10,766 nucleotides of DNA from a virus (UHGV-0121619), one strand, 5' to 3'; positions 4,712-9,722 are shown, counted from the first letter of the stretch. A program made the numbers and translations. Notes: generated by a model from the letters alone, not told the origin.

Positions 4712-5614
4712 TTATGACTCACTTTGTTCTGAGAATGGGAATGAAGACAGAACAAGAACCTGTCGATTTGTCTTATACATGTATTCATTAATGACGTTGT
4801 GCAGATTTTTTAACGCCATGCTAAAATCTTTGTCGTATGTAAAGTCTTCTACTTTAATTCTTAAGTCATTGATAAGAGTATTTATTCCTATCGTTCTTCC
4901 GTGAGAATGCCACTTTCCGTTGTCACTAAGAGCGGTAGCGATCATTTTAGCTCTCGCTTCTTTTTCCCTCTTGGAAACTAGCTTTCCTCGTTTTGTGTTA
5001 CCTTGATGAACCGTCCACTCTCTGAATTTATACTCTACAAGCCACTTCTTAAGCAAGTCTATTGATAGCTCTCTGGCTTGCTCGTATCTCCTTAAGTGCG
5101 CAAGATCTAACTGACTAAGCATCATTAGTTCAGCTTGGGTAATGGTTCCTTCTCTGGATTTAGTAATCATTTCTTCAACTTTATCAAGGTATCCCAAAGC
5201 AGGAACCCATTTACCGTCAGAGGATTGCACTTGAGGGTCAATGGGGCCTAATGAAGAAGCATAGTTCATGTAAATTTTATCTCCAGACATACACCATATT
5301 GTGCCTGCCGACATGGCCATATCTGGAATGATAAAATATACCTCTTGATAGAAATGCCTTGTAATTTCTACCATTTTTTCCACAGACTCAACAGAGCCAC
5401 CATTTGTATTGAGTATAATAACTAGAAATCTATTGGTACGACTGTTAGCCATCTCCCCAATAGCCTCAAGTTTTGGTTGGTAAACTTCTTTTGACCATGG
5501 AAAGATACCACCGTAGTACGCTATGACGTCGCAGCTTGGGAAAAAGTTATTTTTAAATTGCTCTAACTGCCAAGAAATGTATGTTTCTAGTGTTGAATCA
5601 AGATTTTGGCTCAT
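4712..5614 (-). CDS. ClpP/S49-fold serine peptidase-like protein in the rexAB position (candidate exclusion/defence gene)
   Basis: 300-aa ORF; block LVIILNTNGGSVESVEKMVEITRHF...YFIIPDMAMSAGTIWCMSGDKIYMNYASSLGPIDPQV resembles the GG...(A)ASGG nucleophile region of SppA/ClpP-fold peptidases (putative Ser102 in AMSAG); lies directly downstream of cI on the same strand. Confidence 0.75.
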   Translation of the reverse strand: MSQNLDSTLETYISWQLEQFKNNFFPSCDVIAYYGGIFPWSKEVYQPKLEAIGEMANSRTNRFLVIILNTNGGSVESVEKMVEITRHFYQEVYFIIPDMAMSAGTIWCMSGDKIYMNYASSLGPIDPQVQSSDGKWVPALGYLDKVEEMITKSREGTITQAELMMLSQLDLAHLRRYEQARELSIDLLKKWLVEYKFREWTVHQGNTKRGKLVSKREKEARAKMIATALSDNGKWHSHGRTIGINTLINDLRIKVEDFTYDKDFSMALKNLHNVINEYMYKTNRQVLVLSSFPFSEQSES

Positions 5615-5686: not shown

Positions 5687-6403
<717 letters not shown>

Positions 6404-6500: not shown

Positions 6501-6701
6501 ATGGAACAACGCATAACCCTGAAAGATTATGCAATGCGCTTTGGTCAAACCAAGACGGCTAAAGATCTCGGCGTATATCAAAGCGCGATCAACAAGGCCA
6601 TTCATGCAGGCCGAAATATTTTTTTAACTATAAACGCTGATGGAAGCGTTTATGCGGAAGAAATAAAGCCCTTCCCAAGCAACAAAAAAACAACTGCATA
6701 A
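6501..6701 (+). CDS. cro: Cro repressor, lambda type
   Basis: 66-aa [41 protein letters not shown]... recalled as near-identical to lambda Cro; GGAGG RBS upstream. Confidence 0.95.
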
Positions 6702-6807: not shown

Positions 6808-7104
6808 ATGGAACAAACAAGTTACAGCAAACTATCACAGCGCGACGTTGATCGCGCAGAAACAGATTTACTCATCAACCTGTCAACGCTTACCCAGCGC
6901 GGTTTGGCAAAGATGATTGGCTGTCATGAATCGAAGATAAGCAGAACGGACTGGAGATTTATTGCTTCGGTCTTGTGTGCTTTCGGAATGGCATCAGACA
7001 TCAGTCCGATTAGCAGGGCTTTTAAGTATGCGCTTGATGGACTCACCAATAAAAAACGCCCGGCGGCAACCGAGCGTTCTGATCAAATACAAATGGAATT
7101 TTAA
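6808..7104 (+). CDS. cII: CII-like transcriptional activator (mosaic: divergent N-terminal part, lambda-like C-terminus)
   Basis: 98-aa ORF; C-terminal ...LTNKKRPAATERSDQIQMEF matches recalled lambda CII C-terminus; N-terminal two thirds differ from lambda CII. Confidence 0.8.
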   Translation: MEQTSYSKLSQRDVDRAETDLLINLSTLTQRGLAKMIGCHESKISRTDWRFIASVLCAFGMASDISPISRAFKYALDGLTNKKRPAATERSDQIQMEF

Positions 7105-7116
7105 CAACATCCAGCG
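7048..7116 (-). ncRNA. oop: oop antisense RNA (lambda-like), overlapping 3' end of cII
   Basis: Minus strand ...TGATCAGAACGCTCGGTTGCCGCCGGGCGTTTTTTATT matches recalled 3' half of lambda oop RNA including terminator and U-tract; candidate pO -10 TATAAT on minus strand at 7122-7127. The 5' end is approximate. Confidence 0.55.
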
Positions 7117-7126
7117 AGGTAATTAT

Positions 7127-7399
7127 ATGCGAAACAAAGGCTTTAATCCACCTGATACACACAAAGAAGTTAAGCGTTTGCGCTTCCTTCGTTCCATTGA
7201 TGAAAGAACTCAAATCTCTTTTGTGAAAGTTGCCAGAACTGAGCTTCTGAAGGCTGAGGCGAGGGCGTTGCTACCGTCTATACCAAAAGAGGAGGGATAT
7301 ACGTTCATTCCAAACGCATTTCTGGAAAAGCTGCTCAAAGAAGACATATCCGTAAGTCAGTTTAACGATGTTCTTAAGGTCTTTCGTCAAGGCAGGTAG
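7127..7399 (+). CDS. hypothetical 90-aa protein between cII and the replication initiator
   Basis: ATG 7127-7129 with GAGG upstream (MRNKGFNPPDTHKEVKRLRFLRSIDERTQISFVKVARTELLKAEARALL...); the ORF-track 145-aa version extends upstream into cII in another frame and is unlikely. Confidence 0.55.
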   Translation: MRNKGFNPPDTHKEVKRLRFLRSIDERTQISFVKVARTELLKAEARALLPSIPKEEGYTFIPNAFLEKLLKEDISVSQFNDVLKVFRQGR

Positions 7400-7401
7400 T
7401 T

Positions 7402-8349
7402 ATGAGCAATACAGCAAAAATCTACGATTTCAGCGCCGCACACGAGCGCAGGAGCAACAGGATGGAGAACCAGAAAACTGGTTACATTCCGTTGTACCGG
7501 AGCATTCTGAAACAGTCATGGGCGAAAGATGTTTATCTTCGCACCCTGTGGGAAAACCTTCTCCTGAATGCCGCCAGAAAGCCATACAAAGCGAATTTCA
7601 AAGGTCATGAATGGCATCTGCAACCCGGTCAACTGGTTGTGACAGCAGCTGATTTAGGTCTTCAGTTATGCGACAGGCATGGCAAGCCGGCAAGCCGTGA
7701 TCAGGTTGAGCGGATGCTTCAGGTTTTTGTGAAAGAGGGGATGATCTCCATTGATGGAGAGAAGCAAAAAGGTCGTGTGATAACCATCACAAATTACCAT
7801 GAATATGCTCAAAAAATGGACAATTTACCCGCACATGAAGCCGCACAAACAACCGCACATGATGCCGCACATGACGAAGCCAGTAATGGCGCGGCTTTCA
7901 GAGTACATGCCGCACATGAAAGCGCACATGAAGCCGCACAAACAACCGCACATCATGAACAAGAAGGTATTAACAAGAATATAAATAATGCCCCCCTACC
8001 CCCCAATGGGGGCGGCGATGGGCAGGTTAAACCTGAACGTCGCAAGGCAGAACGAATCGACTACGAATCCTTCCTGAACGCCTACAACACCGAAGTCGGT
8101 GACAGACTGCCACACGCTGTTGCGGTCAACGAGAAACGCAAACGCCGCCTGAAGAAAATCATCCCGCAACTGAAAACGCCAAACGTGGACGGTTTCAGAG
8201 CGTATGTCAGGGCGTTTGTGCATCAGGCAAAGCCGTTTTACTTCGGAGACAACGACACGGGCTGGACGGCAGATTTTGATTACCTGCTGAGGGAAGATTC
8301 GTTAACGGGAGTTCGGGAAGGGAAGTTTGCAGACAGGGGGATTGCATGA
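7402..8349 (+). CDS. replication initiator (lambda O / P22 gp18-like) with internal origin
   Basis: 315-aa ORF; N-terminus [10 protein letters not shown] resembles lambda O MTNTAKILNF; contains tandem iterons, AT-rich tract and Pro/Gly linker mid-gene; stop overlaps helicase start (ATGA at 8346-8349). Confidence 0.8.
7829..7957. repeat. origin-like iteron array: two clusters of four tandem 12-bp repeats (CCGCACATGAnG / CCGCACAAACAA)
   Basis: Units at 7829, 7841, 7853, 7865 and at 7910, 7922, 7934, 7946; followed by AT-rich 7958-7990 and C6-TA-C6-AAT-G5 hairpin-prone segment 7991-8013. Confidence 0.75.
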
Positions 8350-9722
8350 GACAGGATATCGAAGCGAGCGTTATCGGTGGCCTGCTGATTGGTGGATTAA
8401 CACCGACTGCCAGTGACGTTCTGGCAACGCTTGAGCCGGAAGCGTTTTCAATTCCGCTCTACCGGAAAGCCTTCGAGGTTATCCGCAAGCAGGCGAGGAA
8501 CAGAAACCTAATCGACGCGCTGATGGTTGCCGAGGCGTGCGGAGAGGAGCATTTCACGTCAATCCTGATGACCAGTAAGAACTGCCCGAGTGCCGCAAAC
8601 CTGAAGGGATATGCCGGAATGGTCGCGGATAACTATCACCGCCGTCTGGTGCTGGAAATCATGGATGAAATGCGTGAACCAATTCAGAGCGGAACCATCG
8701 ATACATCGAGTCAGGCGATGGACGAGCTTGTAAAGCGTCTCTCAGCCATCAGAAAGCCCCGTGACGAGGTTAAACCTGTACGGTTAGGGGAAATCATCAC
8801 TGACTACACTGACACGCTTGACAGGCGTCTGAGGAACGGAGAAGAGTCAGATACCCTGAAGACCGGAATCGAAGAACTTGATGCCATCACCGGAGGGATG
8901 AACGCAGAAGACCTGGTGATAATCGCTGCTCGTCCTGGTATGGGGAAAACCGAACTGGCGCTGAAGATTGCCGAAGGCGTTGCAAGCCGCGTTATTCCTG
9001 GTTCTGACGTCCGGCGCGGGGTATTGATTTTCTCAATGGAAATGAGCGCATTGCAGATTGCAGAGCGAAGCATCGCCAACGCCGGGAGGATGTCGGTTAG
9101 CGTGCTGCGAAATCCTGCATCGATGGATGACGAAGGCTGGGCGCGTGTTGCTAACGGCATGAGTCAGCTTGCAGATTTGGATGTATGGGTAGTCGATGCC
9201 TCGCGGTTATCGGTCGAAGAAATACGCTCAATCGCAGAACGGCACAAACAGGAAAATCCAAACCTCTCACTCATCATGGCGGATTATCTTGGCCTGATTG
9301 AGAAGCCGAAAGCAGACCGCAACGACCTCGCAATTGCTCACATCTCCGGAAGCCTGAAGGCGATGGCGAAAGACCTGAAAACGCCTGTTATCTCCCTGAG
9401 TCAGCTTTCGCGCGATGTTGAGAAGCGACCAAACAAACGCCCGACAAACGCAGATTTGCGTGATTCAGGAAGCATTGAACAGGACGCAGACTCAATCATC
9501 ATGCTCTATCGGGAAGCGGTATATGACGAGAACAGTAGCGCCGCACCATTTGCTGAAATCATTGTGACAAAAAACCGTTTTGGCTCGCTTGGTACGGTTT
9601 ACCAGCGGTTCTGCAACGGACACTTTGTTGCATGTGACCAGGATGAAGCCAGACAGATTTGCACAGCATCAAATGCGCCCGCTGCGCGTGGCAGACGATA
9701 TGCACAAGGGGCTGACGTATGA
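8346..9722 (+). CDS. DnaB-like replicative helicase (P22 gene 12 type)
   Basis: 458-aa ORF; Walker [13 protein letters not shown], DnaB-like N-terminal domain and C-terminal RecA-like core ([12 protein letters not shown]..., [11 protein letters not shown]). Confidence 0.9.

Follow-up and report, generated by a model that had tools for sequence, protein, structure and literature searches.

Replication origins that lie inside the O initiator gene are textbook knowledge for bacteriophage lambda, and a short-repeat version has already been noted for phage L. The origins of lambda, P22, and HK97 hold four palindromic iterons of about 18 bp with start-to-start distances of 20/24/23 bp, each phage having an iteron sequence of its own, and the lambda iterons are bound by O dimers. 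The iteron sequences of P22 (L005, 1399-1487), HK97 (L004, 1402-1486), and lambda (L055, 435-521) are unrelated, yet their spacing is identical, which points to an O-some geometry that is probably strongly conserved in this subfamily. Iteron origins are also found in theta plasmids (F, R6K, pPS10, and P1), in which winged-helix Rep monomers occupy direct repeats. Plasmid iterons are typically 17 to 22 bp long, are phased at about two helical turns, lie outside the rep coding sequence, usually come with DnaA boxes, and serve both initiation and control.

[quoted passage not shown] In gene 18 of the Salmonella phage L, six imprecise 11-bp repeats were described as “likely the origin” in a publication that mentions the six repeats and not a two-block design (PMC8022706). 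The phage L record (MW013503) also annotates a rep_origin, which is termed only “putative,” and the origin annotation of P22 is given only “by similarity.”

The locus described here lies in a 10.8-kb stretch of viral DNA (10,766 nucleotides, referred to as the window), in which the early genes of a lambda-like phage are found (Table 1). The product of its O-type initiator gene matches Phage_rep_O (PF04492) over residues 20 to 132 of 315 (E = 3e-15), and the gene shares 98-99% nucleotide identity with the O genes of CUS-3, HF4s, and many Stx2a phages. The next gene encodes the presumed partner of the initiator, a DnaB-type helicase with 90% identity to P22 gp12. No sigma-70-like promoter was found in the interval 6900-8400. 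Elsewhere in the window, a 300-residue ClpP/SDH-like serine protease ORF (4712-5614, minus strand; Pfam SDH_protease, E = 1.6e-10; phrog_11747) lies between the N/sieB region and cI, the position held by rexAB in lambda, and is a candidate accessory or defence gene expressed from the prophage. A strong terminator-like hairpin of 12 pairs followed by a T run (7053-7080, minus strand) extends over the 3' end of cII, matching the position of the oop terminator annotated in P22.

Table 1. Features of the early region and of the putative origin (positions counted from the first nucleotide of the window)
Feature	Position	Strand	Evidence
ssb, erf, and HNH endonuclease genes	in window		
N-like antiterminator gene	in window		
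sieB	in window		
cI-type repressor	5687-6400	-	
cro	6501-6701		
cII	6808-7104		
O-type replication initiator gene, 315 aa, putative origin inside	7402-8349	+	ORF list; Pfam Phage_rep_O
N-terminal winged-helix domain of O, aa 1-142, presumed iteron-binding module	7402-7827	+	AlphaFold, Foldseek
Iteron block 1, four 12-bp direct repeats	7829-7876	+	TRF, hexamer phase, comparison of relatives
33-nt spacer between blocks, with conserved motif CCAGTAATGGCGCGGCT at 7880-7896	7877-7909	+	
Iteron block 2, four 12-bp direct repeats, orientation as block 1	7910-7957	+	
AT-rich tract, 32 nt, 19% G+C	7958-7989	+	base composition
C-terminal module of O, aa 190-315, P22 gp18 / HK97 gp54 type	7969-8349	+	
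C6-TA-C6-AAT-G5 element, right side of AT-rich tract	7991-8012	+	
DnaB-type replicative helicase, 458 aa	8346-9722	+	Pfam DnaB_C, E = 9e-78, plus DnaB N-terminal domain

Tandem Repeats Finder (TRF) detected two period-12 arrays within the initiator gene (7829-7874 and 7910-7953, with scores of 57 and 53). In register, the units of block 1 read CCGCACATGAAG, CCGCACAAACAA, CCGCACATGATG, and CCGCACATGACG, and those of block 2 read CCGCACATGAAA, GCGCACATGAAG, CCGCACAAACAA, and CCGCACATCATG. The repeat core in the window is CCGCACAT, and the conserved part of the unit covers positions 1 to 8, [C/G]CGCACA[T/A]. The whole window contains nine CGCACA hexamers, and eight of these fall inside the two blocks in exact 12-bp phase; all four exact matches to CCGCACATGA are inside the blocks as well. 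A first-pass annotation, made from the sequence alone, had proposed two clusters of four repeats here, and TRF, the unit register, and the hexamer phase agree with that proposal; its description of the iterons as shorter than those of lambda and split into two blocks also stands (12 bp versus about 18 bp). The units are asymmetric direct repeats without dyad symmetry. They are in frame and encode residues 143 to 185 of O as a (P/A/T/S)-A-H-x peptide repeat, so that the same DNA does encode a repetitive linker, and they lie inside the initiator gene, as had been stated at first pass; within this Phage_rep_O gene, they are between the DNA-binding N-domain and the helicase-side C-domain.

No second array of the same kind occurs elsewhere in the 10.8-kb window. 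One iteron-like 11-mer stands alone toward the 5' end of O (GCCGCACACGA, 7435-7445). It was weighed as a possible additional operator and rejected, since relatives do not conserve it and its sequence disagrees with the A/G class of the locus; it is probably a chance occurrence. No DnaA box was found within 7829-8013, the count in the sequence is that expected by chance, and the closest sequences resembling a DnaA box, each with one mismatch, lie at 7153 and 8217. A search against Rfam matched no family in the window. The part of the gene that encodes the C-domain contains two further short tandem repeats, namely, a 12-bp repeat (TCAGAGCGTATG, 2.1 copies, 8195-8219) that is also present in HK97 and in the relative L006, and a 14-bp repeat (AGGGAAGTTCGGGA, 2.6 copies, 8290-8327) that is also present in L006. 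An apparent deficit of GATC (20 versus 42.7) was set aside, as the tool probably counts this palindrome on both strands in the shuffles.

The spacer between the blocks carries a motif, CCAGTAATG(G/A)CGCGGCT, that is common to the window (7880-7896) and phage L (L138, 1688-1704), although their initiators are only 22% identical. This motif may be a site for another factor, or it may merely reflect the peptide S-N-G/D-A-A. A candidate spacer hairpin (GAAGCC...GGCTTC; z = -2.8 in the window) was rejected, since its arms show no covariation across the 45 relatives described below.

The AT-rich segment reported after the repeats at first pass corresponds to the G+C minimum of the gene: the tract has 6 G+C in 32 nt, the lowest 32-nt value in O, and in the whole sequence 63 of about 10,700 stretches of this length (about 0.6%) are as low. 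Its top strand is A-rich (19 A and 7 T). An AT-rich tract was found in every relative, with 15-33% G+C in the first 40 nt, and in the window the tract is presumed to be the DNA-unwinding element.

To the right of this tract, the C6-TA-C6-AAT-G5 element was located as described at first pass, where it had been called a GC hairpin. The conserved sequence element is real, but its folding energy is unexceptional (-6.5 kcal/mol, z = -0.5, no better than shuffled sequence), and the hairpin was the weakest part of that description. A C5-6/C5-6/G5 element occurs 3' of the AT-rich tract in combination with three unrelated C-domains, namely, those of P22, HK97, the window, and L006; of L007; and of L045 and L053. 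The element of P22 sits inside its annotated rep_origin, that of L007 is at about 2013-2036, and those of L045 and L053 are downstream of their AT-rich tracts; one locus with a P22-type C-domain, L019, is without it. The Pro codon in these elements is always CCC, a rare Pro codon in E. coli, and such constant use of a rare codon points to a role at the DNA level. The element probably belongs to the right half of the origin, where it may bound the melted region or provide a loading or priming signal.

To compare this arrangement among relatives, we collected 47 relatives of the N-domain, with one genome per species, plus phage records, and units were defined from the protein pattern alone in 45 loci of Enterobacterales, giving 308 repeat units. 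The spacer is exactly 33 nt in all 45 loci. The comparison of repeat number among relatives that had been suggested at first pass gave a layout of 3+3 in 26 loci and of 4+4 in 19; a further locus, L023, was read by eye as 4+4. The two layouts differ by 8 codons, and the unit number does set the length of the protein linker, as had been claimed. On the N-domain tree, the copy number changed several times and was equal in both blocks throughout. At full length (4+4) and at least 95% identity, the region is present in 272 of 5426 complete E. coli genomes.

Equal blocks are nevertheless not an absolute rule, as two loci indicate. A 6+4 layout, with five identical CCGCACATGAAG units in block 1, occurs in a prophage of E. 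coli bR_120_Kylling (L056, 1270-1425; NZ_CP182374); it is the only length variant among the inspected E. coli genome rows and looks like recent slippage. L053, from a Symbiopectobacterium MAG, has a single block and keeps the AT-rich tract and the C/G element. In Xenorhabdus ehlersii (L010, 2380-2560), the O frame stops soon after the spacer and block 2 is missing. Both L010 and L053 appear to be decayed versions.

Across the 308 units, positions 1 to 8 are almost invariant ([C/G]CG[C/A][A/G]CA[T/A]), and positions 9 to 12 are variable. Codon usage in the repeat cores is highly restricted. Ala is encoded by GCA (139) or GCG (107) and never by GCC or GCT, whereas the conserved columns of the N-domain use GCC (85), GCT (71), GCA (34), and GCG (23); Glu is encoded by GAG (59) and never by GAA, whereas the conserved N-domain columns use the two codons equally (45 each). 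His codons in the cores are CAT in 248 cases and CAC in 1 (the N-domain has no conserved His column), and Gln codons are CAA in 31 cases and CAG in none. Unit position 5, at which A and G are synonymous, is uniform across the units of a locus in 43 of the 45 loci. Among 78 close relatives from viral contigs, 19% of core positions are polymorphic versus 44% of variable unit positions, and none of the 32 sites of the AT-rich tract is polymorphic. The scan of IMG/VR returned near-identical relatives only, and it informs polymorphism and yields no new iteron cores. The frozen synonymous sites, the uniformity within loci, and the polymorphism pattern together argue for selection on the nucleotide sequence, that is, selection that evidently acts on the repeat DNA and not on the encoded peptide.

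Similarity searches separated the initiator into two parts. Matches to HK97 gp54 were limited to residues 190 to 315 (96.8% amino acid identity by tblastn), and those to P22 gp18 were limited to residue 190 onward (59.7% by tblastn; 57% from residue 185 by BLASTP). Klebsiella phages matched residues 3 to 195 (77%), and a Yersinia phage matched residues 3 to 143 (74.5%), both by tblastn; their genes combine two-block repeats (CCGCACATGA or CCGCACATAA) with a lambda-O-type C-domain and a lambda-P-like partner gene. In the 45 loci, the C-domain joined to this N-domain and its repeats is of the lambda O type in 42, of the P22 type in 2, and of another type in 1, and lambda's own right-hand palindrome motif is present in 26 of the 42. 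The repeats are co-inherited with the N-domain, independently of the C-domain. The module junction lies in or directly after the AT-rich tract, and polymorphism among close relatives rises from 0% in the tract to 78% in the C-domain. The junction and this jump in polymorphism delimit the N-domain and repeats as one unit and the AT-rich tract, right element, C-domain, and partner gene as another; the C-terminal module is presumed to recruit the helicase. The classical lambda O picture of two modules is obtained here by sequence comparison.

Iteron cores change with diverged N-domains while the geometry stays the same. L006, with 52% N-domain identity, has 3+3 units (CCGATGAACCAT / GCGATAAACCAT), and the Enterobacter phage L007, with 47% identity, has 3+3 units of the GTCGAA/GACGAG type (GCGTCGAAGGTA / GTGACGAGCCTC); the spacers of both are 33 nt long and homologous in sequence. 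The L006 contig (OR850084.1, “Staphylococcus phage SA 1298 Kay,” 2692 bp) specifies an O protein of the enterobacterial lambdoid kind together with a DnaB helicase, which are very similar to those of E. coli and Salmonella phages; the organism named in the record is almost certainly incorrect, as a result of contamination or mis-binning.

The AlphaFold model of the N-domain (34-sequence alignment, pLDDT 73.7) includes helices at residues 82-88 and 99-112 and a beta wing at residues 115-129, and its best structure matches in Foldseek were all winged-helix DNA-binding domains (CAP, CodY, and MarR), at weak scores (E of at least 3e-3). A single-sequence model of the whole protein was unusable (pLDDT 40). 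Sequence searches of the PDB gave nothing significant with the protein or with a 31-sequence profile, for which the best matches were pArc (E = 0.013) and Fur (E = 0.06). One clade is set apart by G in place of A at unit position 5, a change that is perfectly matched, across the 45 loci, by the substitutions A82 to S/T and D100 to H in O (codons at 7645-7647 and 7699-7701 of the window). D100 is at the start of the third helix (99-112), which is the modelled recognition helix. This covariation falls on a single branch and represents one evolutionary event, and we treat it as a lead only.

We consider it likely, on the strength of these comparisons, that the repeats are the replication origin of the phage, with iterons bound by O in the linker-coding part of the initiator gene. 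The repeats lie between the Phage_rep_O and helicase-side domains and are followed by an AT-rich tract, as in lambda and P22, and the observed anatomy of the locus, selection at the DNA level, conserved geometry, and modular linkage of the repeats to the N-domain, together with the change of the core with the N-domain and the winged-helix model, all favor this explanation. From these features, we infer binding, stoichiometry, unwinding, and helicase loading as follows. The winged-helix N-domain of O would bind the eight asymmetric 12-bp sites, probably as head-to-tail monomers, given that no unit has dyad symmetry and that the repeat period is roughly one helical turn. The result would be two equally large protein arrays on either side of the fixed 33-bp spacer, and this nucleoprotein complex would destabilize the adjacent 32-bp AT-rich tract. 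The C-domain, which is of the P22 gp18 type, would then bring the phage DnaB-type helicase, the product of the next gene, to the opened DNA, and the C/G-tract element would bound the AT-rich tract on the right.

A more general proposal, which we offer tentatively and with some doubt, is that lambda-like phages have a second conserved initiator-binding half, consisting of two equal arrays of three or four asymmetric 11- to 12-bp sites around an exact 33-bp, motif-bearing spacer, with an assembly unlike the lambda O-some. If so, a bridge over the spacer would connect two head-to-tail monomer filaments, perhaps together with a third factor bound to the CCAGTAATGGCGCGGCT motif, and this half could be freely exchanged with the lambda-type half before the same AT-rich/helicase-loading half. 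The equality of the blocks and the fixed spacer would then be functional requirements and not accidents of descent.

Part of the repeat pattern could also be produced at the level of the protein or the message. If the repeats were only a His/Ala-rich protein linker with no DNA role, made uniform by slippage and gene conversion, the in-frame units and the (A/P)AH(x) peptide repeat would be expected, and slippage does occur, as the five identical units in L056 illustrate. However, the synonymous positions are frozen in 45 loci from a wide range of genera, whereas the residues at variable positions are free to change, and Glu substitutions always use GAG, which preserves the G at unit position 5. 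The homologous repeats of phage L have an 11-bp period and no peptide-level repetition, and the peptides of L006 and L007 are quite different while their DNA geometry is the same. A purely protein-level role therefore seems very improbable, and these comparisons largely refute it, to the point of effective exclusion. Frozen synonymous sites alone would fit selection on RNA as well as on DNA, and the conserved 8-mer could work at the mRNA level, where, for example, an RNA-binding regulator might recognize it or translation might pause at it. We give this reading hardly any credence, given the lack of an Rfam match in the window, the unexceptional single-strand fold of the region (z = -1.6), and the ready explanation at the DNA level for the linkage to a winged-helix DNA-binding domain and an AT-rich tract.

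Other readings keep the repeats as DNA sites and differ in what the sites do. O could bind them chiefly for autoregulation or for control of copy number, through titration or handcuffing, with initiation elsewhere in the phage, and the dual role of plasmid iterons is a precedent. This appears improbable, however, as an invariant AT-rich tract adjoins the repeats, their position matches those of the lambda and P22 origins, and the 10.8-kb window has no other such array, the isolated site at 7435-7445 not being conserved. A less remote, though still unlikely, reading is that the working origin consists of block 2 and the AT-rich tract only, with block 1 and the spacer as auxiliary elements for occupancy or regulation, like the extra iterons of the Stx phages 933W and P27; it does not exclude the origin reading favored above. 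The sufficiency of two iterons in lambda and the distal iterons of Stx phages are precedents (PMC7466680), L053 keeps one block beside its AT-rich tract, and expansion of block 1 to six units is tolerated in L056. On the other hand, core conservation and frozen codons are alike in both blocks, blocks of equal size around a spacer that is invariably 33 nt in more than 45 loci argue for joint action of the two, and L053, which comes from the MAG of a symbiont, may be a prophage in decay.

We found no specific description of the iteron sequence or of the HK97/CUS-3/Stx2a origin in the searchable literature, nor any of the n+n / 33-nt rule seen across the family. The layout, with short direct repeats in two equal blocks, is a little-described form of a known arrangement. 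This type of initiator is common, being present in the 272 E. coli genomes counted above, in CUS-3, and in some fifty sequenced Stx2a-converting O157 phages. Shiga toxin production is driven by phage replication (PMC7466680), and the frequency of the initiator in E. coli prophages and Stx2a phages lends the arrangement some practical weight. With several iteron cores, layouts of 3+3, 4+4, and 6+4, and three C-terminal partners, the family is a natural series that could be used to study how winged-helix initiators recognize short direct repeats and why the blocks keep their symmetry and the spacer its length.

Among known systems, the plasmid iteron origins offer an analogy, in that the window also has asymmetric direct repeats, presumably bound by a winged-helix protein, that adjoin a putative AT-rich unwinding element. 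The window differs from them in its 12-bp period, in the location of the sites inside the gene, and in having no DnaA box in or beside the element.

The likeness to ori-lambda is closer. In both, the DNA that codes for the linker of a Phage_rep_O initiator would also serve as the origin, and the order runs from iterons to an AT-rich tract, apparently with a G+C-richer element after it; the annotated lambda iterons and P22 rep_origin are at the position corresponding to the window repeats. As in lambda O, the N-domain would determine origin specificity and the C-domain the partner protein, with the module junction at the AT-rich tract. The parallel with ori-lambda drawn at first pass holds for position and logic but not for iteron design, as palindromic sites of about 18 bp are replaced by asymmetric direct repeats. 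The window departs from ori-lambda proper in its 12-bp units without dyad symmetry, its 4+4 layout, and its 33-bp spacer, whereas lambda has four iterons in one block. The N-domains of the two initiators are barely alignable, and lambda's right-hand palindrome (GTCAGAGAATTC/GAATCCTCTGAC) differs in sequence from the C6-TA-C6-AAT-G5 element. The partner in the window is a phage DnaB-type helicase, whereas that of lambda is the loader P, which recruits the host DnaB.

The origins in P22 gene 18 and in the gene for HK97 gp54 (“Eru2A”) resemble the window in their C-domain (57-97% identity) and in their type of helicase, and the right half, with its AT-rich and C-tract sequence TACCCCCTTACCCCCTAA(A/C)GGGGG, is common to all three. 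Their left halves, in contrast, follow the lambda design, with sequences of their own and a lambda-like N-domain. In the window, a two-block direct-repeat module appears to replace the left half of the P22/HK97 origin.

The left half itself is closest to that of phage L. The window O protein and L gp18 share 22% identity over their full length (BLASTP, E = 1e-10), with the motifs GQL..., GMI, and IT..Y in common, and the two belong to one N-domain subfamily and have a DnaB-type helicase gene downstream. Gene 18 of phage L reads as 3+3 units of TGTCCAACGGA with a 33-nt spacer and with an AT-rich tract after block 2; its spacer motif is CCAGTAATGACGCGGCT, versus CCAGTAATGGCGCGGCT in the window, and both carry the CCAGTAATGRCGCGGCT motif. 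Phage L differs in its 11-bp period, its unrelated core, its 3+3 instead of 4+4 layout, and its lack of a C/G-tract element. The 11-bp period is out of codon phase, which marks the repeat of phage L as a DNA feature and not a peptide repeat. On present sequence evidence, the origin in the window is best read as an L-type design joined to a right half of the P22/HK97 type.
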